This document shows, in pieces, positions 5,818-60,843 of a DNA stretch of 64,000 bases (positions within the stretch are counted from its first letter, which is position 1; the number at the start of each line of letters is the position of its first letter). The notes under the pieces were generated by a model. The model was not told the DNA's origin. It saw only the letters and a program-made list of their open reading frames with translations, and did not search any database. A program made the position numbers and the translations under genes. The stretch is from NCBI GenBank assembly GCA_048569615.1, contig JBLIRK010000007.1, positions 1,174 through 65,173 on the forward strand. Reading direction: 5' to 3'. This DNA is from Thermoplasmatota archaeon. Lineage in GTDB: Archaea > Thermoplasmatota > Penumbrarchaeia > Penumbrarchaeales > Penumbrarchaeaceae.

Positions 5818-8800
5818 TCAGTACCTTCCGGTGATGCGGAGGATCCTGTCCTGCAGATCTCTTTTATCGCTGTCAAGGAGAATGGTCTTGGCGGCATTTA
5901 TCTCGTGCATCTTCTTGTGGGCTTCCTCCTCGTTGAAATCCTCCCCGTGCATGGCCCTGTCCGGATGATATTTTGCCGCCAGGTTCCGGTAGGCTTTCTT
6001 TATCTCCTTTTGTGAAACTGTCCTCGACACACCTAGAGTTTCGTAGGCATCCACCTGGTCGATCTTGGTAGAGACATCGAAATGTCTGAGTATCTCCAGC
6101 ATATGCTCCCTGTCCTCCTCGGAAATGTAATGCTTGTCATGATGCCGCTTGATGAGGAAGACTCCGATCATGAAGGCGATAAGAAGTGAGACCAGCACAA
6201 CGGCCGTTATTGCTATGATCATCGGCGTATCACTGCCCGAGTCCTTCGATGGTATTGTCAACAGATTTATCGTTCCCAAAGATGTGGTCCTGCCAGCCGT
6301 TATGGTGACGGTGCCGTTGTATTCCTGGTATCCATAGCGGGTGATGTTCAGCGGGTACGTTCCCATATGATATGAGATATTGAACCGTCCGTTCCCGTCC
6401 GTCCTGTCGGAAGCGAGGCCAGCAAGGTTCACTTTTATTCCCACCATGGGAGCTCCGAACTCATCAACAACGATACCCTCGATGTATCCTATGTCAGTTG
6501 TCGTGAAGTTCCAGCTGTGGGGTCTCAGCCTGTTGCCGGCGGTATCCGAACCTCCCACCTCGACCCTGTAAGTGGTCGCGTATTCAAGCTCTCCATCAAT
6601 AATGTAGGTGACCTGCCCGTCGCGCACCGATAGCTCCCCATCCACACCGGGGATCTTGACTTCGATCGAATCGGGATCGAGCAACTCGGAAAATATCAAC
6701 CAGATGTCCTCGTCAACAGCGACCTGCTCACCCGCTGGAAGAAACTGGATCACGTAGGGCTCGGAAGTGTCGATCGTAAAGGAGACCCTCTGAATGATAA
6801 TGTTCCCCGCTCTGTCGTAGGCGGACACGCTGATCTGGTGGGTTCCGTCGGAGATATTGTTGAAGCTGACCGGCATATTGGATTTATATTCAAACGGGAG
6901 GTTTGAATCCATCTGGACCATGAACCTTGAGATCCCGGAAAGGGAATCCTCCGAAGTGAAGGAAAGTTCGAAGGTGGAGGTGTTGAGGTATGAATCCTGG
7001 AGCGGGAAGAGTATATCAAGAGAGGGTTTTGACTTGTCCATCAGGATATCCTTTGTCACCTGTGCGTTGTTCCCGCCCTGATCACGGACCATTACGGAAA
7101 AATGATGAAGACCCTCGGTATGAAGCTGCACCACAAGCTCTGTCACCCTCCCCCGGTCCACCCAATTACCTTCATCTAGACGGGTGAATACCGTGGAGAC
7201 ACCCGAGGTCGAGTCGGCCATCTGCCATTCCACGAGAAGGGAGTCCAGATTGGTATGGGTCAGCTCGGGTTGGTTGAACGTCACGAAGGGGGAGACAGTA
7301 TCCAGGGTGAACCTGACATCATCCTCGCCCCTGAGATCAAGGGCATTCCATGCTTCCACCGAAATTGTATGGTAACCCTCGGAATCCAGCTCGATCTCGA
7401 CGATCTCGGACGGCAGGTATTCCTTCCCTTCCTCATCGTCAACATACACTATTATCCTTGTCAGATCGCTCTCCCTCTCTATTATATTCCATTCCAATCG
7501 GAGGGTGGTGGTATTGACCACGCTTTCGGTCTTCGGGTAGGTTATCGTTATCTCCGGAGGTGTTGTATCAAAAACGATGGATACGGGATCGGAGAGGGGT
7601 CCTTCTCCCGCCTCGGTGATCGCTGATACCATGTAGCTGTACATCAATCCGGGAAATACCTCTCCATCGGTGTAGAAGACCGTATTGGTCTCACTTGTGG
7701 ACCTTATCTCCCAGTCTCCGCCCGATTCGCTCCTGTAGATCCTGTACATGTCGATATTCAGTCCGTAATGCTTGACCGCTCCCTTCCAGGAGAGCCTGAT
7801 CCCGCTTTGACCTGCGGATGCCTCCAGGTCCTTTGGCGGACCCGAGAGGTCCATGGGGGAGCGGAGGAGGGGGAGCGGATCGAAATTGGTACCGCCGGCG
7901 ACGGGATACGGCTCGTCAACGATGCCGTCATCGTCAAGATCGGGGGAGGTCCAGTCGGTCCAGTGATTTCCTCTCTGTGTATCGGAATCGAAGAATTTCA
8001 CAACATTGCCGAGGTCTGCGGCCTGCACGTTCCAGGAGGCGAAGTTGAAGGTCGCACCGTTGTTCTTCGAGAAGGTGTTGTTCCATATCCGAACTCCATC
8101 ACATTCCGATGGGGATGAATAGTAGTAGAGCTGGAGTGGAGCCTTGTTGTTGTAGAACAGATTGCCGGAGATGGAACAGTCCCTGGACCTTTGTATGGTC
8201 ATTGGTTCATCATTCTCTTTTACGAAGCAGTTCGACACGGTCGTATTATCGGCATAATCAAGATTGATCCCTACCGCCGTTTCCCCACCGATGATGTTTA
8301 TATCCTTTAAAACGGTTCTATCGGATTCTCCCACTGCTATTCCATAAGAAAGATCCTGGCCGGTTACCATACCTCCGACCATGAAGCAGTCGAATGATTC
8401 GCTTATACTGATTCCTACTTGCACTGCCCATGTATTCATATCGATCATAGCAACATTGGAAGATCGTATTAGGTAAACACCCGTAAAAGCATTAACCACC
8501 GTGTTCTCCATCAATGTGATGTTCGAGGAAGAGGACAACAGGATTCCACGTTGCGTGTTTTTATCCATCCAGCACTTTTCAATATTAAGCCAGGAGCAGG
8601 AGTGGATGTATATCCCTAACTTGTTATCGTTCATGTAGCTCTCCTTTATGGTGCCGTTTCGGCAGTTGTTCAAATAAAGGGCTTTTCCGGTAAACCAATT
8701 CTGATCGTCGGTCGCACCTGTAAAAGTGCAGGATCGGACCTCGAAATGAAGGGAGACATCGGAGATGCTCAGGCATGTGTCGCCCCCACTGGCATCTATC

Positions 8801-9027
8801 TCGAGGTTGTCGATCGTTACCGGATCATTCTCACTTCCGGTCCCGTTCCAGTTGTAAGTCGTTTTCTTCAACAGAAGATCATCATTCCCGACTATGGTGA
8901 TCGGGGAGCTCTGAAGCCTCGTATCCGATGGAACGTCCTCGGCTGAGGACCTCAAGTTTACTGAGCCGAGGCCGATCAACAAGATGACCGCAGCGGTCAA
9001 TAATGCCCGGGAAAGGCTCTCCTTCAT
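5818..9027 (-). CDS. Cell-surface beta-helix/Fn3/Ig protein with single TM and cytoplasmic C-terminal J-domain
   Basis: Signal peptide MKESLSRALLTAAVILLIGLG; same ectodomain modules as its neighbours; TM IIAITAVVLVSLLIAFMIGVFLI followed by KRHH; tail DAYETLGV..EIKKAYRNLAAKYHPDR..MHEINAAKTILLDSDKR (HPD codons at 5959-5967). Confidence 0.9.
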   Translation of the reverse strand: MKESLSRALLTAAVILLIGLGSVNLRSSAEDVPSDTRLQSSPITIVGNDDLLLKKTTYNWNGTGSENDPVTIDNLEIDASGGDTCLSISDVSLHFEVRSCTFTGATDDQNWFTGKALYLNNCRNGTIKESYMNDNKLGIYIHSCSWLNIEKCWMDKNTQRGILLSSSSNITLMENTVVNAFTGVYLIRSSNVAMIDMNTWAVQVGISISESFDCFMVGGMVTGQDLSYGIAVGESDRTVLKDINIIGGETAVGINLDYADNTTVSNCFVKENDEPMTIQRSRDCSISGNLFYNNKAPLQLYYYSSPSECDGVRIWNNTFSKNNGATFNFASWNVQAADLGNVVKFFDSDTQRGNHWTDWTSPDLDDDGIVDEPYPVAGGTNFDPLPLLRSPMDLSGPPKDLEASAGQSGIRLSWKGAVKHYGLNIDMYRIYRSESGGDWEIRSTSETNTVFYTDGEVFPGLMYSYMVSAITEAGEGPLSDPVSIVFDTTPPEITITYPKTESVVNTTTLRLEWNIIERESDLTRIIVYVDDEEGKEYLPSEIVEIELDSEGYHTISVEAWNALDLRGEDDVRFTLDTVSPFVTFNQPELTHTNLDSLLVEWQMADSTSGVSTVFTRLDEGNWVDRGRVTELVVQLHTEGLHHFSVMVRDQGGNNAQVTKDILMDKSKPSLDILFPLQDSYLNTSTFELSFTSEDSLSGISRFMVQMDSNLPFEYKSNMPVSFNNISDGTHQISVSAYDRAGNIIIQRVSFTIDTSEPYVIQFLPAGEQVAVDEDIWLIFSELLDPDSIEVKIPGVDGELSVRDGQVTYIIDGELEYATTYRVEVGGSDTAGNRLRPHSWNFTTTDIGYIEGIVVDEFGAPMVGIKVNLAGLASDRTDGNGRFNISYHMGTYPLNITRYGYQEYNGTVTITAGRTTSLGTINLLTIPSKDSGSDTPMIIAITAVVLVSLLIAFMIGVFLIKRHHDKHYISEEDREHMLEILRHFDVSTKIDQVDAYETLGVSRTVSQKEIKKAYRNLAAKYHPDRAMHGEDFNEEEAHKKMHEINAAKTILLDSDKRDLQDRILRITGRY

Positions 9028-9077: not shown

Positions 9078-12000
9078 TCACGTCTGTTCCGATATCTCAT
9101 CATCAAGGAGGCTCATATCGTACATCTGCCTGCGCACGGGGTTCAGGAGCACGGTCTTTGCATCGTTAATCTCCCTCATGAGATCGGCTATCTCGTCTAG
9201 CTCCATATCCTCTCCCCTCGCAGCCATCCTGTCCGGATGGTATAGGGACGCCATCTTTCTGTATGCCGCCCTGATCTCCTGGGATGTCGCATGCCTGTCG
9301 ACTCCGAGAAGGGTGTAGTAATCACGGTTCTGGTCGAAATATTCGATCTCGAATTCGGCATCCTCCTCGAAGTTCTCCCATCTGACCTTGGGCGGAGGCT
9401 CTTCCACAACGACATAGAAGGCCTCCTTTGTCACGGAACTTCTCCTCCTCTTTATTATGACGAGGATGAGAACCACCGCTATGATCGTGAGGAGGATCGG
9501 AACTGCGGCAATTGCAACTATCAGTATCGAGGAGCCCGATCCCTCCTTCTTCGTCATACTGATCACATCCATCTCCACAGTTCTTCCAGCCTCCACTGTC
9601 ACCACGAACTCCATCATATCGTATCCGTTCTTTCTGATGGTCACCGTGTAAACACCCGGGGGAGCTTCGATCGAAAAACTTCCGTCCGGACCCGTGACTG
9701 TCCCGGCTCCGTTGGAAAGAGCGACCTCCGCACCCTGGACGGGTCTGCCCCTGTTGTCCTTCACTATGCCGGAAATCGCCCCCAGGTACAAAGTGGCGAA
9801 CTCCCAGGTATAGGTAGGGATCTGATTTCCCGCAAGGTCGAATGCCCTGAACCTTACTGTGTAATCCTGGCCGTAATCGAAATTGTCCACGAAATCCACT
9901 AATATTTTTAAGGTGCCGGATGGTCCGATGGAGTAGTCGAACTTGCTCCCGTTCCCCCACCACCGAACTCCCTCCCCATCGAATACTTCGATAAGGATGG
10001 ATTCCTCCTGGAGGGATTCCGAAACCTCAAGGACGATGGGAGCATTGATGGCCACAAGGACGCCGGACGGTGAATGGGAGATTACTTCAGGGACCGTCGT
10101 ATCAACGTATATGGTGATCTCCAGGGTCCTGACATTCCCGGCCCTGTCATATGCCATGAGTTCGATTATGTTTGGTCCTTCCGTCAGGCCTCCAACCAAT
10201 ACTCGGTCGATATAAGGTTCCAGGATCAGGTCCGCCTTGGAAGTCTTCACTCTAAAATGGTGGATGCCCGAAAGAGCGTCAGCGAACTCCCATGAGAGTT
10301 CGATCTCTGTTGTATTTATCAGATTGACCTCCCAAATATCCGGAGAAGCGAATATCAGGCCGGGAGGCTGGATATCGAAGACTATATCCATGTTGCCTTC
10401 CGCGCTGTTTCCGGCAAGGTCCTCCGCCCGAATATGAAGGGTTGTATACTGGCCCTCTATCCAGAGATCGTAGGAAGGTTCAGAGAACAGGGTGGACCAG
10501 TTATCGTCCCTGATCCTGACCCGGTATCCCTTGATGCCGCTTCGCTGGTCCTCTCCATTCCAGGAAATTCGTATGAAGTTGAGATTTACGTAGAGAGGGT
10601 TTGAACCGGAGAGATGGAGGATCGGGTCAGTATGATCGATCTCGAAGACGGTATTGACCTCAGAGACCATTGAGACATTGTTCACCCCCCTTACCCACAC
10701 AGTGTGGGAACCCTCGCTCATCTTCTTTTTGGAATGACCTGTGCTCAATCCCACCGAGGTCCACTGGCCGTCATCTATCCTGATCTCGTAGTGGTCCATA
10801 CCGCTCTCGAGGTCCTCACCTTCCCAGGTTATGAGCACATCGCTCGTATTCACCCAAGAACCCGATTTTGGAGTCAGTATCCTCAACTCGGGTTTCGAAT
10901 CATCCTTGAATCCGGATACTATCTTGGAGAGCTCGCCTTCACCGTAGGCATTCGTGGCCCGTATCCCGTAATAGTATCTGAAGCCGCCAATGACCTCCGT
11001 GTCCGAATATTCCGTGGAAGTCCTGTCGACGGCGTTGAGGAATTCAAGTCTTTCAGGTGAGCTCCCCCTGTAGATGTGGTATTGGTATATTTTACCGGTC
11101 AGACTCTTCAGGGGTTCTTCCCATCTCAGTTCGATCCTTGTGGCACCCGAAAAGCACTTAATATTTCTGGGCTCCGAAACGAGCGGATACGGCGAATGGG
11201 TCAGTGGAAAGTGATCGGCTGACCATCTTTCGGGAAGGCTGTAAACAGTGTAATCTACGATGCCGTCAAAGTCCGAGTCGGAACCCTCGACGTTGGACCA
11301 GTAGTTCCCCCTCGATGAGGTGTTCCAGCTGGTGTATCTGCCCAGGTCCTTGACCTGCCAGACCTGGGGTATGGGGTAGTAGTCGGTGCCGTTGTTCCAG
11401 ATGAAGGAATTCTCGAAGAACTGGTTGTTCTTCCCCCACTCGACGAGGATGGCTTCCCTATGGCTCTCGAGAATGAGGTTATGATCGATCCTTCCGTTAT
11501 CCACATACTTCAGACGGACGGCCTTGTTGCATTCCCTTATGAGGTTCCATTCCATTTCCAGAAAGCTGGAATCGATGATATCGATCCCGGTCTGGGAGCC
11601 CGTTATCTCGTTCCCCGTTATGACGAGTGTGTCCTCTGCGTTGGTGATGAATAGACCGGAGTTGTCCGCATCGATCGTATTGTTCATTATCCGGACATCA
11701 TGACAATAATCAAAGGCCGAACCCGTACCAGCTGAATTCATGGTATTATCCTTCAAGATCACGCCATCCACATTATGGAAACCCGGTGCTCCGCTCAACC
11801 CGCAGGTGAAATCATTCCCTTCCACCAGGATGTCCCCCCCCTCCCAGGCATACAATGAGGGCCAGAGGTCGTCGAAGGTATTTGATTCAATTCTTACGCG
11901 GGAACAGTCCGTTAACCGGATCCCATCCCCGAAAATGCTCAACTCCGAAAATTTGCAGCTCGATATCCTAAGATCCACTGTGGATATCGATTCAACCGCC

Positions 12001-13766
12001 TCTCCGTTGTTGTAGAAATCGGTCCCTTCGATAACGAAACCGCCGCAGTACTTGGTCCACACACCGTTGTCACATCCCCTCAGGTCCGAGGATGCGAGCT
12101 CGATGTTGTGGGAATACAATGCCGCGATTCCGCATGCGGAGGAAACCACGTCGATCCCGGACATCCTGATGTTCTCGCAATCGAAGATGAAGAAGGGAGC
12201 ATCGGCAGGGTACATCGTCATGTCCGAAAATTGGATGTTGCTGGACTGGTACATAATGATCTGGTTGGTATCGGGCGATATCTCTGCGTTTTCAAGGTCG
12301 ATGTTTTTATAGAATTCAATGGGCTTATCCCTGAAAATGTTGTCCTTCATCGCGAGAGTTGATAGCAGGGGGTCGAGCGAGCGGTATTGGTGATATTGAA
12401 AATCCTCGAAGGCCAATCCCTTACCATATAATGTATTCCCTATCAGCGTAATATTTTCATTTTTATAATGAAATAACAGATCGTATTCCGAATCTGAATT
12501 GAAAAAATTGGAATCAAAGCTAACTTTGTCCGACCAATGAACATAAAGCGCATCGGCAAAATATGAACGAAAAACACTGTTCTTGACCTGAATGTTGTTC
12601 CCATGGAAGATATCCAAACTTCTTGATGATGAGCGGATGTTGGAAAGTTCAATGAGGACATCATCGGAAAAACTGACCTCCAATCCATACAGGTCCGATA
12701 GGATCGACACTTCCGAGAGGGTTATTCTCCCTGATTCGAGGATTGCGATCCCAGAAGGATAGGCACCGTTAATTTCGGTATCATATACGACCATGTTCTC
12801 CGAATATTGGATCTCCATTCCGGACCATTCGGGTCTCAAGGTAAACAATACAATCGCGCAGTTTGCGATACCGTTGGCCTTGATCCCGTAACCGCAATCC
12901 AGGATCTGGCCGCTTTGTAATTCCAGATCATGGGAATCCGTCAATTCCATCCCGAAATCATGATAGGAAATGGAATCCAATTCCATCATGACATACTTTG
13001 AATCTTTGATCGACACTCCGGTTCCGGTAACTTCTTCCGGGTCCCCCGTTATGTCATTCCCGAAGGTTGTCAAATTGGAGCAATTATCGATCTGGAATCC
13101 CACGCCCGTGTCATTTACCCAGGATTCACTGATCAGGCTGTTATTGCAATCCAGCAGATGAAAGCCCCACTGACAGTAATCTATAGATGATGTCCTGCAA
13201 ATGGATGTTCCTTCCGATTCCTCTATCCAGATGCCCTTCCAATAAGAATTCGTGATATTGCATCCATCGATATCAGTCAAATAAGAGTTCAGAATGTATA
13301 TCCCTACTGCCTGGGCTTTGATCATTGTTGCTGTTATTTGGGGACCGCGACCGCATCTTTCGGCATAGATCCCTACGGGACCCACATCAATTACGCAGTT
13401 CGCTATGGAGATGTCCATTGAATTGCTGATGAAGATACCGTTGTCCTTCGAATTCTTGAGGGTGCAGTTTTGAACGGATATGCTGTAGGTTGTGTTTGCG
13501 ATGGCTATGCAGAATGAACTCCCCCCTGCATCTATTGTGTAATTGCTGATCAGAATGGGATCCTGTTGGGAGCCGCTCCCGGGCCATCCCTCGGAAGATG
13601 CCGTGTTAAGGAGGTCGGCATTCCCATCGATATCTATGACGGAGTGCGGATTACTACCTGCTGAGGGGAAATCGATTCCGCTTCCATCGATATCGAGCAC
13701 GCCAATGAAGCTGGCACTGAACAATATGATAACTAATGCTGCAGCAGGCCGCCTCGGTATCCTCAT
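9078..13766 (-). CDS. Large cell-surface beta-helix/Fn3/Ig protein (1562 aa) with single TM and cytoplasmic C-terminal J-domain
   Basis: Signal peptide MRIPRRPAAALVIILFSASFIG; long beta-helix; Fn3 LRWEEP..YHIYR..YYYGIRATN; TM ILIVAIAAVPILLTIIAVVLILVII followed by KRRR; tail DYYTLLGV..EIRAAYRKMASLYHPDR..MREINDAKTVLLNPVRRQMYD (HPD codons at 9231-9239). Confidence 0.9.
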   Translation of the reverse strand: MRIPRRPAAALVIILFSASFIGVLDIDGSGIDFPSAGSNPHSVIDIDGNADLLNTASSEGWPGSGSQQDPILISNYTIDAGGSSFCIAIANTTYSISVQNCTLKNSKDNGIFISNSMDISIANCVIDVGPVGIYAERCGRGPQITATMIKAQAVGIYILNSYLTDIDGCNITNSYWKGIWIEESEGTSICRTSSIDYCQWGFHLLDCNNSLISESWVNDTGVGFQIDNCSNLTTFGNDITGDPEEVTGTGVSIKDSKYVMMELDSISYHDFGMELTDSHDLELQSGQILDCGYGIKANGIANCAIVLFTLRPEWSGMEIQYSENMVVYDTEINGAYPSGIAILESGRITLSEVSILSDLYGLEVSFSDDVLIELSNIRSSSRSLDIFHGNNIQVKNSVFRSYFADALYVHWSDKVSFDSNFFNSDSEYDLLFHYKNENITLIGNTLYGKGLAFEDFQYHQYRSLDPLLSTLAMKDNIFRDKPIEFYKNIDLENAEISPDTNQIIMYQSSNIQFSDMTMYPADAPFFIFDCENIRMSGIDVVSSACGIAALYSHNIELASSDLRGCDNGVWTKYCGGFVIEGTDFYNNGEAVESISTVDLRISSCKFSELSIFGDGIRLTDCSRVRIESNTFDDLWPSLYAWEGGDILVEGNDFTCGLSGAPGFHNVDGVILKDNTMNSAGTGSAFDYCHDVRIMNNTIDADNSGLFITNAEDTLVITGNEITGSQTGIDIIDSSFLEMEWNLIRECNKAVRLKYVDNGRIDHNLILESHREAILVEWGKNNQFFENSFIWNNGTDYYPIPQVWQVKDLGRYTSWNTSSRGNYWSNVEGSDSDFDGIVDYTVYSLPERWSADHFPLTHSPYPLVSEPRNIKCFSGATRIELRWEEPLKSLTGKIYQYHIYRGSSPERLEFLNAVDRTSTEYSDTEVIGGFRYYYGIRATNAYGEGELSKIVSGFKDDSKPELRILTPKSGSWVNTSDVLITWEGEDLESGMDHYEIRIDDGQWTSVGLSTGHSKKKMSEGSHTVWVRGVNNVSMVSEVNTVFEIDHTDPILHLSGSNPLYVNLNFIRISWNGEDQRSGIKGYRVRIRDDNWSTLFSEPSYDLWIEGQYTTLHIRAEDLAGNSAEGNMDIVFDIQPPGLIFASPDIWEVNLINTTEIELSWEFADALSGIHHFRVKTSKADLILEPYIDRVLVGGLTEGPNIIELMAYDRAGNVRTLEITIYVDTTVPEVISHSPSGVLVAINAPIVLEVSESLQEESILIEVFDGEGVRWWGNGSKFDYSIGPSGTLKILVDFVDNFDYGQDYTVRFRAFDLAGNQIPTYTWEFATLYLGAISGIVKDNRGRPVQGAEVALSNGAGTVTGPDGSFSIEAPPGVYTVTIRKNGYDMMEFVVTVEAGRTVEMDVISMTKKEGSGSSILIVAIAAVPILLTIIAVVLILVIIKRRRSSVTKEAFYVVVEEPPPKVRWENFEEDAEFEIEYFDQNRDYYTLLGVDRHATSQEIRAAYRKMASLYHPDRMAARGEDMELDEIADLMREINDAKTVLLNPVRRQMYDMSLLDDEISEQT

Positions 13767-54582: not shown

Positions 54583-55428
54583 CTATCCGTACATCGAGGG
54601 CAGGGGGGCCGAGCTCTTGCCCCCGGGTTTGGAAACCTGCTGGTATCCCCTCATCTTTGCCTCCAGGAGGTCCGCTTCGGCATATAAAGGTCCCAGATCG
54701 ATCTCGAGATACGGGATTATTTTACGGAGAACTTCGATGATACCCGCCGCGGCCCTGGCGTCAGGGATGTTGTCGCGGGCCTCCGCCAGAAGGCAGGTCA
54801 CCTCGAAGTTCCGTTTCTTGCCCTCGTTCAATAGGACTCCGGGGATCCCAGATATCAGCCCTTCGGGGAAGATCGGAACGCCCGCCTTGGAAAGCCTCTC
54901 CTTACCTGATGTGACCGAAGAGAGACCGAAGATGCTCTTGTCATGGTTGAGCTGCTTGGGCGCTACCTCCTCCATGGGCCCCTCATCCTCCTCGCCATCT
55001 TCATCTACATCGCCCTTCTGCGCTTTGGGCCCGGGGCCTTCACCCTCGATGACAAGCCCCTCAGGGGAGATCAGGCAGCTGCATTTCTGCTCATCGGCCC
55101 ACTCGAGCATGGAATTGCATATCATCTTGATCAGGTTCGAAGGGGGCTGGAACTCCGAAAGGAACACAACAAGCCTTGTCCAGTCGCCGTCCGGACCCTC
55201 CAGATCGCCGGCGTAGAAGCGGACGGGATGGTGGGGCTCCCCGTCCCTCACTACAGAAACGGTGGGGAAATAGACGGAATCCATGACGCCGATGAGTTCC
55301 ATGTCAAGGGCCGCCACTATGTAGCTTGCTGTTATCGTGCTCACCAAACCCACGGAGGGAAATCCGTCAATGATGAAGGAATCCCTAAGGTCCAGGCGTC
55401 TGTACTCGAATATCTCTATATCGTCCAT
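54583..55428 (-). CDS. Proteasome assembly chaperone (PAC2) family protein
   Basis: IIDGFPSVGLVST..YIV..P.RFY..G.ISGIPGVLL..LAEA..PDARAAA..L..EA..LE. Confidence 0.88.
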   Translation of the reverse strand: MDDIEIFEYRRLDLRDSFIIDGFPSVGLVSTITASYIVAALDMELIGVMDSVYFPTVSVVRDGEPHHPVRFYAGDLEGPDGDWTRLVVFLSEFQPPSNLIKMICNSMLEWADEQKCSCLISPEGLVIEGEGPGPKAQKGDVDEDGEEDEGPMEEVAPKQLNHDKSIFGLSSVTSGKERLSKAGVPIFPEGLISGIPGVLLNEGKKRNFEVTCLLAEARDNIPDARAAAGIIEVLRKIIPYLEIDLGPLYAEADLLEAKMRGYQQVSKPGGKSSAPLPSMYG

Positions 55429-55539: not shown

Positions 55540-56244
55540 ATGGAGCGTCCCGTTATCCACATCAACTGCGCGGCCACCGTGGACGGGAAGATCTCAAAAC
55601 CGGACGGATCCCGCCTCCGCATCTCGGGCGAATGGGACATGGGGAGGGTTCACCGGCTGAGGGCGTCCCTTGGGGCAGTCCTGGTAGGGTCCGGGACCAT
55701 CATCAAGGACGACCCGAAGCTCACGGTCAAGGAAGTCCATGTTCCGGATCCTCCATCCATTTTCAAGGTTGTGATCGACGGAAGGGGGCGAATTCCTTCC
55801 GCTTCGAGGTTCCTAAGGACCAGAGGCCATTCCATAATCGCAACAAGGAGCGACTGCTCCCCAGATTGGAAAAGAAATATTCTGGAATCCATCGAGGACG
55901 AGGGCCTCGATGCTCGGATCATGGAATTCGAACCCTCTGAGAACACCATCGACATCGAAGTCCTTCTCAGGAAGCTTGCGGACCTGGGGGTGGACGGCAT
56001 CCTTGTCGAAGGGGGAAGCAGGACCATATGGGAATTCGTTTCCGGGGGGTTTTTCGACAAGTTCACCATCTATCTGGGTCCTATGGTGGTCGGAGGGAAC
56101 GGTCCCACGGTCATGTCGGGTCCTGGATTTGATGAGGCCCCGCTCAATGTGAAGATCATGAATGTGCAGGAAACCCCCGACGGAGGTCTGCTTGTCGAGA
56201 TGGAGCCTTCCGGTCAATATGCGAACCTGCTCCTTTCACCCTGA
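55540..56244 (+). CDS. 2,5-diamino-6-ribosylamino-4(3H)-pyrimidinone 5'-phosphate reductase (RibD-C/Rib7 type)
   Basis: [53 protein letters not shown]; real start is ATG 55540 inside track ORF 54943..56244. Confidence 0.9.
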
Positions 56245-57332
56245 ACCTCGAGGAGCTTCTTAATCGCCTTCTTCTCCCTGATACCGGGATGCTTCGGGAC
56301 CTCGACCCTTACCTGGACGTAAAGATCCCCGAACCGGTTGGGATTGTGGATGTTCGGCATTCCCTTGCCCTTGATCCTGAGAATGGTATTGGGCTGCGTC
56401 CCCGCGGGCACCTTCATCTCCAAGGGTCCGTAGAGGGTGGGAACCTCCACCTTGGAGCCGAGGACCGCCTGGGGGTACGTTATCGAGATCTCGCACCTTA
56501 TATCGTTGCCGGCCCTTTCGAAGAACTTGTGAGGTTTCACTCCCACGGTCACGAACAGGTCCCCGGCGGGTGCCCCCTTCTCTCCTTCGTCCCCAAGACC
56601 GGAGATCCTGAGTCTTGTGTCCGTATCCACTCCCGGAGGGATGTTGATGGATTTCTTCAGCGTCTCCCGCACCTTCTTCTTGCCCCGGCATTTCTTGCAG
56701 GGATCGCCGATGACCTGTCCCTCGCCGCTGCACCTCGGACATGCCCTTGTTGTGACATACTGCACCGGGCCCAGGTTCTTGACCATCCTGAGGGAACCGG
56801 ACCCGTGGCACTCCGGGCATTCCTGGGGCTCTTCACCCTTCTCGGATCCTGTACCCAGGCATTTGGGGCATCTTATGAGATGGGCCACATCGAGGTCCTT
56901 CTCAACTCCAAGGGCGGCCTCTTCAAGGGTTATATTCACCGCCGCAACCCTGTCATCACCGGGTGCCGGGCCCCTTCTCCTGAAGGAACGCTCCTCGAAG
57001 GGATCCCCTCCGCCGAAGAAGGAACCGAATCCGCCTCCGAAGGACCTCATGAACATCCTAAGTGCCTCATCGAGGTCAACGTGGTGGTACTGGTAATTGG
57101 GCATACCGCCTTCCTCGGCTGCGAATCCGAACTGGTCGTACTGGGACCTCTTATCCTCGTCCGAGAGCACCTCGTAGGCTTCGGTCACCTCGGTGAACTT
57201 CTTTGCAGACGATGGGTCATCCGGATTCCTGTCGGGATGATACTTGAGGGCCAGCTTCCTGTATGCTTTCTCGATATCGGACTTGGTAGCGTCCTTCTGG
57301 ACGCCCAGAACCTCGTAGTAGTCCTTCTTCAT
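56214..57332 (-). CDS. dnaJ: Chaperone DnaJ (class A)
   Basis: [17 protein letters not shown]-rich region, four CxxCxGxG-type repeats, C-terminal substrate-binding domains. Confidence 0.97.
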
Positions 57333-57366
57333 GGTAAGCACTGCCCTCAAGCATCATATTCAGCGT

Positions 57367-59205
57367 TTATTCGGCATCCTCTGCATCGACGTCGATGTAG
57401 TCCTCGTCCGAATCCTTTGTCGTCGATGCCTGCTCTTCATCCGCGTCCATATCCGATCTCTTCGTTCCGGAGGCCTGCTGGTACATCTTGGCAAAGAGCT
57501 TCTGGGAGGCCTCGGAAAGCTCCTCGGTCTTCTCCTTCATATCCTCGACGTCGTCTCCCTTTGCTACCTCCTCCACCTCCTTGAGGAGCTTCTTGACCTC
57601 CTCGACCTCGTCGGGATCCAGCTTGTCCTTGTGGTCCTTGATTGCCCTCTCGGTGGCAAATACAAGCGATGTGGCGTTGTTCCTCGCCTCGGCAAGCTCC
57701 AGCTTCTTCTTGTCGTCGTCGGCAAACCTGTCGGCGTCCTCCATCATCCTCTCGATCTCGTCATCCGAGAGAGCTCCGGTACCTGATACGACGATGTTCT
57801 GGGAATTGCCGGTCGCCAGGTCCTTCGCCGTCACATGCACGATGCCGTTGGCATCTATCTCGAAGGTGACCTCGATCTGCGGAATGCCTCTCGGCGCCGG
57901 CGGGATACCGGTCAATGTGAATACGCCTAGTGTCTTGTTGTCCATCGCCATGGGACGCTCGCCCTGCAGAACATGTATCTCCACCTGCGGCTGGTTGTCC
58001 GAGGCCGTGGAGAAAATCTTCGATTTCTTGGTGGGTATCGTGGTATTCCTGTTGATAATCCTTGTCATCACCCCTCCCAGGGTCTCTATACCGAGGGAGA
58101 GCGGAGTAACGTCGAGGAGCACCATGTCCTTTCCAACCTCTCCGGACAGAACTCCAGCCTGGATGGCTGCCCCTATCGCGACGCATTCGTCAGGATTGAT
58201 GTTCTTGGTCGGGTCCTTCTTCATTATCTCTTTGATCTTGGACTGGACCATTGGAACCCTGGTGGACCCCCCCACCAGGAGGATCTTGTCTATGTCCTTG
58301 GGATCGAGCTTGGCATCCTTCATGGCCTGCTTCACGGGTTTGATGGTTTTCTCCACGAGATCGCTAATCAGCGTCTCGAACTGGGACCTGGATAGCTCGA
58401 TATCAACATGCAGCGGTCCATCGTCGCTCTGGGCTATGAAGGGGATGCTGATCTGTGTGGTTGGCGTGCCGGAAAGCTCGATCTTGGCCTTCTCCGAAGC
58501 ATCCTTGAGCCTCTGGACCGCCTGCTTGTCCTTGAGCAGGTCCACCCCGTGGTCCTTCTTGAAATCATCGGCGATCCATTCCATGACCCTCCTGTCGAAA
58601 TCGTCGCCACCGAGGTGGTTGTTCCCCGATGTCGCCTTGACCTGGAAGACGCCGTCGCCGATCTGAAGTATGGATACGTCGAAGGTACCTCCGCCCAGGT
58701 CGTAGACCAGGATGGTCATGTCCCCTTCCTTGTCCAGGCCGTAGGCGAGTGCGGATGCCGTGGGCTCGTTGATGATCCTCTTGACCTCGAGCCCTGCGAT
58801 CTTGCCTGCATCCTTCGTTGCCTGGCGCTGGGCATCCTCGAAATAGGCAGGAACGGTGATCACCGCCTCGGTGACCTTCTCTCCGAGATAGGCCTCCGCA
58901 TCCTCCTTGAGCTTCTGGAGGACCATGGCGGATATCTCCTGGGGAGTGTACTTCTTTCCGGCCATCGCCACCTTGGTCTTCTGGCCCATCTTCCTCTTGA
59001 TGGAAGCTATCGTGTTCTCCGGATTGGCAACAGCCTGCCTCTTGGCAAGCTCGCCTACCAGCCTGTCGCCCTTCTTCGTGATCCCGACCACAGACGGGGT
59101 GGTCCTGGCTCCTTCCTTGTTCGGTATGACCACCGGCTGACCGCCCTCCATGACGGCAACAACCGAGTTCGTCGTTCCGAGATCTATTCCAATTACTTTT
59201 CCCAT
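57367..59205 (-). CDS. dnaK: Chaperone DnaK (Hsp70)
   Basis: [55 protein letters not shown]; lacks the proteobacterial N-terminal insertion. Confidence 0.99.
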
Positions 59206-59224: not shown

Positions 59225-60106
59225 TTATTTCTTCTTCCTGCCGCCGTCTTTGGTATTACTTTCAACAGGCGGTTTCTTGTTGACTATGACCTGGGAAGGC
59301 CTGACGGCTTTTCCCTTGTAGATGTACCCCTTTCTGATCTCCTCCGCCACCATATCATCCTCGAGATCGCTCCTCTCCACGAAGCCTACCGCTTCGTGAT
59401 ATTCGGGATCGAAGGGCTGGCCCTTCGAGGTTATCGGAGAGATGCCTATCCGGTTGAACATGTTCTTTACCTGGAGCTCCACCATCTCGATGCCCTTGAG
59501 GATCGACCCATGATTGGTCTCGGACCCGACGGGTCCTTTTATCGATCCCTTTGCGTATGAGAAGGTATCCAGCACTTCGATGAGGCCAAGGGCGACCTCC
59601 TGGATCCTGGTGTCAGCCAGGGCCTCCTTCTCCTCCTCGTGCCTCCTCTTGATGTTTCTGAAATCCCTCTGGAGCAGGTGGACCCTGTCCTCCAGCGAGG
59701 ACCTCTCGACCGATACCCTGGAAAGTTCGGCCTTCATCCTCTCCAGCTCCTGCTCCATGGATTCGAGAGATATCGACATCTGGGCCTCCTCGACGGGGCC
59801 TGCCTTCTCATCCACTGGGGAGCCGGCCTCCGGATCCCTCTTTCTTAGGATCACTTCAAGAACTCCCTGGGAAAAGGTGACGGATATCCTGTCAGGGTCA
59901 GGTTCGAAGGGGAGCGCCTGTATCGTGCTGAACTTCCCGCGGCTGCCGTCGGCATCCAGCTTGAGTATGTCGCCGGAAACCGCCATCCTGATGGCATCCT
60001 GTGGCACTCCGGGTAGTTCGACGGTCAGCCTGACGCCTCCGTCTAGCTCCGAAATGTCAGAAAGGGGCTCCCTCGTGTTCTTGTCCTCTCCTGGCATCTT
60101 TATCAT
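59225..60106 (-). CDS. grpE: Nucleotide exchange factor GrpE with N-terminal HSP20/alpha-crystallin-like domain
   Basis: Residues about 12-90: EPLSDI..LTVELPGV..LP..DPD..FSQGVLEVILRK (HSP20-like). C-terminal DFRNIKRR..VLDTF..FDPEYHEAV..KGY..AVRPSQV (GrpE). First gene of grpE-dnaK-dnaJ. Confidence 0.88.
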   Translation of the reverse strand: MIKMPGEDKNTREPLSDISELDGGVRLTVELPGVPQDAIRMAVSGDILKLDADGSRGKFSTIQALPFEPDPDRISVTFSQGVLEVILRKRDPEAGSPVDEKAGPVEEAQMSISLESMEQELERMKAELSRVSVERSSLEDRVHLLQRDFRNIKRRHEEEKEALADTRIQEVALGLIEVLDTFSYAKGSIKGPVGSETNHGSILKGIEMVELQVKNMFNRIGISPITSKGQPFDPEYHEAVGFVERSDLEDDMVAEEIRKGYIYKGKAVRPSQVIVNKKPPVESNTKDGGRKKK

Positions 60107-60223
60107 CTTCCTCTATACAACCTTAAGTTGTTATCTTCTTGTGTAGATAAATGCGAGGTAGTATTTATAATTTGGTCATTGACCGGTAGAAATCCAATTA
60201 TAAACGCTTGCATCTGAAGGGTC

Positions 60224-60400
60224 ATGGCCTCGGTGCCCTGGATAGTATATGTTCTCCTGCTGATGACGGCCATAGTGTCAGCGGTGATGACCCGGATAGC
60301 CAGGGATGGGTGGAGAAGCAGGGGGTGGACGTGGTTCTTCGCCCTGCTGGGTTCCGGATCCGTGCTGGCTCTCATGATCATCGTGTTCCTGAGCGGATGA
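60224..60400 (+). CDS. Small two-TM protein (58 aa), below the ORF-track cutoff
   Basis: Translated by hand: MASVPWIVYVLLLMTAIVSAVMTRIARDGWRSRGWTWFFALLGSGSVLALMIIVFLSG; TTATAAA at 60198-60204; its stop overlaps the next ATG (ATGA). Confidence 0.7.
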   Translation: MASVPWIVYVLLLMTAIVSAVMTRIARDGWRSRGWTWFFALLGSGSVLALMIIVFLSG

Positions 60401-60843
60401 AAATGACAGGCAAGGACAAGATTCTGGACAGCCCCGCTGCAAAGGGGCCGGACCCTCGATATATTTTCCCGATCAGGTCCGAGGTCGATTGGACCTATAG
60501 GGAAAGCTTGATCGTACTGGAATACCCCAAGAACTTCAACCGGATGGAGAGAGCCCTGAACAAGGTCCTGAAGGGTCCCGAGAACATCAAGCGCCCCCTA
60601 GATAATGTGGGCACACTCCTATGGGAACTGAGCGACGGCGACCACAGCCTGCTCGAGATCTACATCAGGGAGCAGGAAAGGTTCCACGAGAGGGTCGAGC
60701 CGGTGGACAAGGTCGTGGGGGGCCTTCTGGAGACCATGCTGAAGCTCGGGCTGATGCGGCTTGAATACCACCCAGAAGGACAAAAGCGAAGCGGAGAGAG
60801 GAGGAGGGGTAAAAAAGTGGTGGTCCGTGCACTGGAGAAGTAG
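60397..60843 (+). CDS. PqqD-like (RRE-fold) protein
   Basis: IKRPLDNVGTLLWELSDGDHSLLEI..ERFHERVE..VGGLLETMLKLGLM; real start is ATG 60397. Confidence 0.7.
   Translation: MKMTGKDKILDSPAAKGPDPRYIFPIRSEVDWTYRESLIVLEYPKNFNRMERALNKVLKGPENIKRPLDNVGTLLWELSDGDHSLLEIYIREQERFHERVEPVDKVVGGLLETMLKLGLMRLEYHPEGQKRSGERRRGKKVVVRALEK

Follow-up and report, generated by a model that had tools for sequence, protein, structure and literature searches.

Why would an archaeal GrpE carry the domain of a small heat-shock protein (sHSP) at its N-terminus? Work on how Hsp70 receives sHSP-held clients still uses the components one by one, and the GrpE of bacteria and organelles is, to our knowledge, regarded as the sole exchange factor and as having no client-targeting domains. 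The question is raised by a gene in the window, the whole 64,000-nucleotide (64-kb) stretch of archaeal DNA analysed here. A first-pass annotation had described this gene as an alpha-crystallin domain (ACD) fused to a complete GrpE at the head of a grpE-dnaK-dnaJ operon, and had read its product as a holdase that hands clients to Hsp70. The sequence motifs and coordinates given for the open reading frame (ORF) proved correct, and the sHSP-GrpE architecture is borne out for both domains by profile HMMs, an AlphaFold model and Foldseek searches.

The fusion gene is an uninterrupted ORF on the minus strand (59225–60106) that encodes 293 amino acids from the ATG at 60106. Its true start is probably the second ATG (60097), giving 290 residues, because orthologues begin at the position equivalent to M4; the spacing of this ATG from a GAGG motif is also more usual than that of the first. 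The protein opens with a short ACD (residues 8–92; 59831–60085, minus strand, like all segments that follow), marked out by the NCBIfam model NF041800, the solved structure 4RZK, Foldseek and conservation among the close orthologues that we call group A. A variable, acidic and disordered linker comes next (residues 93–113; 59768–59830), and at its end stands an IXI-like motif, I112-S-L114 (59765–59773). The remainder is a complete GrpE (residues 115–277; 59276–59764), made up of stalk helix, four-helix bundle and beta domain, and a Lys/Arg-rich C-terminal tail (residues 278–293; 59228–59275). An AlphaFold2 model built with 24 homologues (pLDDT 81.5 overall) has the same layout: a seven-strand sandwich at residues 11–89, a disordered stretch at 94–111 with pLDDT below 50, a 76-residue helix at 114–189, and then the GrpE bundle and beta domain.

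Production of a plain GrpE from an internal start was rejected as a general feature of these genes. The candidate start is the in-frame ATG at codon 110, with a GAGGAGG 5 nt before it (59777–59794). The linkers of three related loci (L001, L004 and L081) contain no in-frame start codon, and other orthologues have no consistent Shine-Dalgarno sequence. The GAGGAGG in the window is probably incidental, because the arrangement is absent from orthologues as a conserved feature.

The junction between the two domains is genuine. A search of 5.8 billion proteins returned about 55 clusters of 279–311 amino acids from independent assemblies, which cover the whole query at 43–80% identity, have both domains in every case and constitute group A. 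The public names of group A members, where they have one, go no further than "nucleotide exchange factor GrpE" of Thermoplasmatota metagenome-assembled genomes, and precomputed Pfam matches list both domains for these proteins. A 481-nt contig of a public run, possibly the source sample itself, spans the ACD, linker and stalk (59552–60032) with zero mismatches. Dozens of independent full-length homologues, together with this junction-spanning contig, rule out a misassembly or chimera. The fusion sequence was also found in marine, estuary and mangrove sediment metagenomes, and a marine-sediment metatranscriptome includes one contig that exactly matches the ACD-coding part (59858–60051) and another that matches dnaK. 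One apparent natural split form was rejected: a 97-residue protein (P0332) and a 200-residue protein (P0333) of the P0044 cluster, on 1-kb ENA contigs, are separated by a frameshift inside strand beta9, and the pair most probably reflects a sequencing error or a pseudogene.

Only a few archaeal lineages have the fusion. Eight of the GTDB species representatives do, all Thermoplasmatota, including one isolate labelled EX4484-6, and a further match is named "Thermoplasmatales archaeon ex4484_6"; the host is an EX4484-6-type Thermoplasmatota archaeon. Among 80 GTDB loci with GrpE relatives, eight have an ACD, all eight of them from Thermoplasmatota, and none of the 72 bacterial GrpE ORFs examined carries one. 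Two further and more distant groups, at about 35% identity, lie beyond group A. P0134, which shares 35% identity with the window protein from end to end, defines group B, with seven clusters, and a 325-residue form (the P0216 cluster and two further members) makes up group C. Both can be placed in the archaea because of their neighbouring genes: group B contigs carry fusion, dnaK and dnaJ beside an archaeal HTH_HVO_0163 gene, and the group C contig (L083, 256–4893) carries thermosome, fusion and dnaK. The nearest named matches of the group B DnaK are Bacillota and Thermoplasmatota proteins at about 70% identity. On the group C contig the thermosome (Cpn60_TCP1) gene lies 45 nt upstream of the ACD-GrpE gene, and all three chaperone systems stand in one cluster.

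How often the fusion arose can be asked of the GrpE domain. In a tree of this domain, group A forms one clade (support 99) with a long stem; outside it, in the company of archaeal and Bacillota GrpEs that lack an ACD, fall groups B and C. A single clade uniting every fusion is not rejected by an AU test (p 0.74), and one origin or several are both compatible with the tree and the test. We found no description of the fusion in the literature searched by keyword, in a review of archaeal sHSPs or in the EX4484-6 genomics paper. Neither these sources nor the narrow distribution suggest a common, documented form. GrpE and sHSPs are each well known; their covalent union is apparently new, as we found no paper on it.

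The N-terminal domain is a bare ACD of a compact archaeal type. The Pfam HSP20 profile PF00011 scores the whole protein at 20.8 bits, exactly its gathering score, and residues 1–95 alone at 24.3 bits. NF041800, which models archaeal Hsp20, aligns residues 8–91 to its positions 68–151 of 162 (E 4e-16). The match reaches 58.9 bits against an equivalog cutoff of 140 because the N-terminal two fifths of the model find no counterpart, the ACD alone being present. By sequence, the best solved relative is 4RZK, the ACD of Sulfolobus solfataricus Hsp20.1 (E 7e-7), which aligns with a single two-residue gap, whereas the long-loop sHSP 3W1Z requires about 18 gap positions. The fusion therefore carries the compact type of ACD that lacks the long beta6 loop. 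Foldseek also places 4RZK first for the N-terminal part (TM 0.87, rmsd 1.2 Å, 83 columns), followed by dozens of other sHSP structures, with model pLDDT at 81–87 over residues 11–89. The ELPGV and GVLEV motifs are present as well.

Set beside Hsp20.1 and the short-loop archaeal sHSPs of NF041800, the fusion has the same ACD, aligned almost without gaps, and in most fusions an IXI-like motif lies downstream of it. The two differ at both ends. The N-terminal region of Hsp20.1-type proteins, about 65 residues, is missing from the fusion; in group A only 7–10 residues precede the ACD, and the sHSP N-terminal arm is absent. The C-terminal extension, which ends the chain in Hsp20.1-type sHSPs, continues into GrpE in the fusion.

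Does this domain belong to sHSP biology at all? It might instead only promote dimerisation or solubility, or be an adaptor of the p23/CS kind for another partner. HSP20-like folds are generic interaction modules, the N-terminal domain also gives weak matches to ArsA_HSP20, SHQ1-CS and CS domains, and the window protein reaches PF00011 just at threshold. A phmmer search with residues 1–100 against 1.84 billion representatives points the other way. It returned 626 matches at E ≤ 1e-3, with the group A fusions first and then stand-alone sHSP-sized proteins (E 1e-11 and weaker) together with one fusion, P0134. Apart from fusions, fragments and a few multi-ACD proteins, the matches listed are sHSP-sized and aligned near their C-terminal end, and Pfam searches of eight of the matches included five HSP20 proteins. 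The nearest sequence relatives (P0065, P0080 and P0097) belong to the true sHSP type and terminate in IXI motifs, the structure that fits best is the ACD of an sHSP, and the fusion has been kept in three deeply diverged groups next to dnaK. We consider a domain without any tie to sHSPs improbable.

The multi-ACD proteins deserve a brief description. P0064 (1286 amino acids), P0081 (1252), P0067 (590), P0112 (609) and P0207 (320) each contain 3 to 8 stretches that match the ACD query. P0067 and P0207 have three PF00011 repeats each; Pfam matches in P0064 include fn3 and others, with PF00011 not found.

The C-terminal domain is a full GrpE. PF01025 matches residues 115–277 over model positions 7–165 of 165 at 126 bits (cutoff 25.8; E 1.4e-36), and Foldseek retrieves the GrpE structures 1DKG, 4ANI and 9BLS with a probability of 1.00. 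Like canonical GrpE from E. coli (the GrpE-DnaK complex 1DKG) and Geobacillus (4ANI), the protein has the complete domain, with predicted stalk, four-helix bundle and beta domain all present in the secondary structure of the model, and its gene stands in a grpE-dnaK-dnaJ operon. What sets it apart is the N-terminus, short and disordered in canonical GrpE, but here an 85-residue folded ACD plus a linker ahead of the stalk. The suggestion that the ACD replaces the disordered GrpE N-terminus was not borne out, in that a variable, disordered linker of 20 residues is still present. The fusion gene is the sole grpE within the 64-kb window and, with dnaK and dnaJ directly downstream, its product is predicted to serve as nucleotide-exchange factor for the cognate DnaK. 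The GrpE part sits on a long branch of the domain tree and evolves much faster than the adjacent DnaK (49–59% against 80–88% identity).

The genomic setting is that of a conserved chaperone operon, and the head position assigned to the fusion gene is upheld by syntenic gene order in relatives. On the minus strand, dnaK (57367–59205; PF00012, E 7e-245) begins 19 nt downstream of the fusion gene and is followed by a type I dnaJ (56214–57350) with J domain, zinc finger and C-terminal domain (PF00226, PF00684 and PF01556). After dnaJ comes a PAC2-family gene (54583–55428, minus strand) that resembles a proteasome assembly chaperone. Group A loci read, in order, divergent upstream gene, fusion, dnaK, dnaJ and, where the locus reaches so far, PAC2; dnaK adjoins the fusion in all related loci that have DNA downstream of it. 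The PAC2 gene is also found in L001 and L003, 96–98% identical over its first 53–56 residues; with it the conserved block becomes a small proteostasis cluster. The C-terminal tail of the fusion (GGRKKK in the window protein) varies in sequence and keeps its basic character across group A, and the C-terminus of DnaK (57367–57420) is a strongly acidic tail. The two may be electrostatic partners.

Several neighbouring genes were characterised alongside the operon. Divergent from it, a 58-residue ORF (60224–60400, plus strand; MASVPWIVYVLLLMTAIV...) with two predicted membrane helices, which is missing from the ORF list, is ATGA-coupled to a 148-residue ORF (60397–60843, plus strand) with a weak PqqD-like match (E 0.098). 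This pair is syntenic in all group A loci that have upstream DNA. A 211-residue ORF from the TTG at 60208 is an over-extension and was discarded. Farther off, two giant proteins have a J domain at their end: one of 1069 residues (5818–9027, minus strand; PF00226, E 9e-19) and one of 1562 residues (9078–13766, minus strand; PF00226, E 4e-17). DnaK therefore has unusual extra J-domain partners besides DnaJ. In a different setting, a Sumerlaeota bacterium (L055) has three stand-alone sHSP ORFs (ACD E 1e-10 to 4e-17) on the opposite strand beside an unfused grpE, a gene-neighbourhood counterpart of the fusion.

The segments of the fusion protein differ widely in conservation. Mean pairwise identity within group A is 65% for the ACD, 57% for the GrpE stalk, 39% for the loop of the GrpE bundle and 54% for the GrpE beta domain; it is 18% for the linker and 21% for the C-terminal tail. 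Judged by these identities, the ACD is the most constrained segment of the protein. The fusion is old and under strong purifying selection.

Within the variable linker one element recurs. We found an [IV]-x-[IVL] motif in 27 of 35 non-redundant linkers of fusions, where shuffles that preserve composition predict 11.7. No simulation out of 20,000 gave as many as 27 motif-bearing linkers, a frequency that cannot be read as a true probability because the sequences are related. Roughly one linker in four, some from group A among them, has no such motif. Where group A has one it takes the form LSISL, ISVSL, VPI/VPV or VKI, and the motif is clear in both other groups, as IDI or ILI in group B and INI in group C. 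Stand-alone relatives terminate in comparable IXI/V motifs (ITV, IKI and VQV). In the window protein, I-S-L is found just where the predicted stalk helix begins, and the AlphaFold2 model leaves it undocked; a group B model has a two-residue beta bridge directly before V-D-I, at low confidence (pLDDT ~53).

What does an ACD do on an exchange factor? The proposal that the fusion physically connects the sHSP system with Hsp70 holds up, and by analogy we suggest that the fusion may tether nucleotide exchange to sHSP/client assemblies or to clients, a function on which we are close to evenly divided, leaning slightly towards doubt. GrpE is a dimer held together by its stalk, which is also a reversible thermosensor (PMC4753570). 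Dimerisation through the stalk would give two ACDs per dimer, placed at the stalk end near the substrate-binding domain of DnaK. In sHSPs, IXI motifs bind the beta4–beta8 groove of neighbouring dimers and so build oligomers (PMC4359974). The beta4/beta8 groove of the ACD and the IXI-like motif of the linker would be the elements that normally knit sHSP dimers together, and through them the fusion could insert itself into assemblies of sHSPs with clients, or directly bind segments that clients expose. Nucleotide exchange, and hence DnaK cycling, would then be concentrated where DnaK must take over sHSP-held clients. In its favour stand the ACD as the best-conserved segment, the enrichment of the IXI-like motif in linkers, dnaK beside the fusion in all related loci with downstream DNA, the beta bridge of the group B model and the sHSP genes next to grpE in L055. 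DnaK has to outcompete sHSPs on aggregates (PMC10708888). The geometry is sensible: GrpE binds DnaK in part through its flexible N-terminus, which seems to be in competition with substrate (PMC4753570). Several considerations weigh against a tether. The missing N-terminal arm is what gives sHSPs most of their client binding, some linkers lack the IXI-like motif, the model of the window protein leaves it undocked, and no sHSP to dock onto was seen within the 64-kb window or around the group A loci. An exchange factor sitting on aggregates could also be counter-productive by shortening the dwell time of DnaK.

The missing arm also bears on the hand-off module of the first-pass annotation. Its holdase role is not supported as written: the protein has a bare ACD with about ten residues ahead of it, and canonical sHSPs bind clients through their N-terminal region (PMC4359974). 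A self-contained version would have the ACD dimer capture clients and pass them to DnaK on the same GrpE dimer, with no stand-alone sHSP involved. The strong conservation of the ACD would fit, as would its position at the GrpE end that faces the DnaK substrate-binding domain (PMC4753570). Sulfolobus Hsp20.1, which among solved structures is the closest relative, still counters aggregation as a dimer and in smaller forms (PMC4359974, PMC9133787), and no stand-alone sHSP was seen within the 64-kb window or in the DNA that flanks the eight loci of group A. Yet the client-binding arm that would precede strand beta2 is reduced to those few residues. GrpE binds ADP-bound DnaK that is already loaded with substrate, which makes the timing of such a hand-off awkward, and a retained IXI-like motif would be superfluous. 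We judge a self-contained holdase unlikely. The motif in the linker speaks for docking on sHSP assemblies, or for self-regulation, no less than for a direct hand-off of clients.

Self-regulation could take the form of a built-in sensor. The ACD and the IXI-like linker would form a lock, within one chain or within the dimer, by which the GrpE stalk is stabilised or gated, and clients would compete with the IXI-like motif for the groove, so that exchange varies with temperature or with the load of unfolded protein. The GrpE stalk is a known reversible thermosensor (PMC4753570), and the IXI-like motif is immediately adjacent to the opening turn of the stalk helix. The beta bridge beside V-D-I in the group B model would fit such a lock, but it is predicted at low confidence, and the window protein is modelled undocked. 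The linker also varies greatly in length and sequence, which fits a tether better than a precise lock. A regulatory lock of this kind seems to us an unlikely account of the fusion.

Tethered exchange has a precedent in function, if not in homology. BAG3 joins sHSPs to Hsp70 by means of its IPV motifs and its BAG domain (PMC6297355). The complexes of BAG3 with HSPB8 or HSPB6 follow the same functional logic as the fusion, an Hsp70 exchange factor physically joined to an sHSP ACD (PMC6297355, PMC4753570), and they are held together by the IXI/IPV-groove interaction that we invoke for the fusion. The components differ. The exchange domains, GrpE here and BAG there, are not homologous, and no BAG domain appeared among the Pfam matches of the fusion at E ≤ 10. 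In the archaeal protein the ACD is covalently part of the exchange factor, whereas the IPV motifs of BAG3 bind a separate sHSP.

Upstream of the fusion gene lies a candidate control element. A TATA-box-like ttataaata (60162–60170, minus strand) was read in the sequence within a conserved alignment block, and between it and the start codon stands the palindrome aACAAC-N5-GTTGTa (60116–60132, minus strand). The 17-nt consensus is TACAAC-N5-GTTGTA, from which the window copy departs by one mismatch. The palindrome occupies the same place in seven group A loci (L001–L006 and L031; 3975–3991 in L001) and is kept in both group B loci (L081, 1385–1401; L082, 987–1003). In group C (L083, 194–210) a near-match with two mismatches precedes the thermosome gene, the first of the cluster, by 46 nt. 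The window copy is the only exact core site within the 64 kb.

The palindrome resembles a known archaeal operator. In Archaeoglobus fulgidus the HSR1 operator, CTAAC-N5-GTTAG, lies downstream of the BRE/TATA element (PMC2396416). The two sites share an xxAAC-N5-GTTxx layout and a position downstream of the TATA box of a heat-shock gene (PMC2396416). They differ in their half-sites, TACAAC here and CTAAC in HSR1. We regard the palindrome as a candidate heat-shock operator of the HSR1/Phr type. Its HSR1-like layout and position would therefore make the fusion gene the first gene of a putative repressor-controlled heat-shock unit, and the conserved operator opens a way into the study of heat-shock control in a class of archaea that has not been cultured.

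Exchange factors with a targeting function, BAG3 and Hsp110 among them, are regarded as an innovation of eukaryotes. In the broadest reading of our results, ACD-GrpE would be a targeted exchange factor through which the archaeal DnaK system extracts clients from sHSP assemblies, or disaggregates, possibly without ClpB, as a prokaryotic counterpart of the BAG3/Hsp110 logic. The module and its HSR1-like operator would have persisted in three or more archaeal lineages that diverged deeply, or have spread between them, and in the present host the module would be part of an unusually elaborate Hsp70 network that includes membrane-anchored J-domain surface proteins. We offer this reading as speculation, with little confidence in it as a whole. 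The fusion amounts to a natural experiment on what happens when sHSPs are coupled to Hsp70, and the compact two-domain protein is an in vitro test case for their physical coupling. If the reading is true, a natural, conserved and covalent ACD-GrpE would mean that targeted exchange factors evolved in prokaryotes too.
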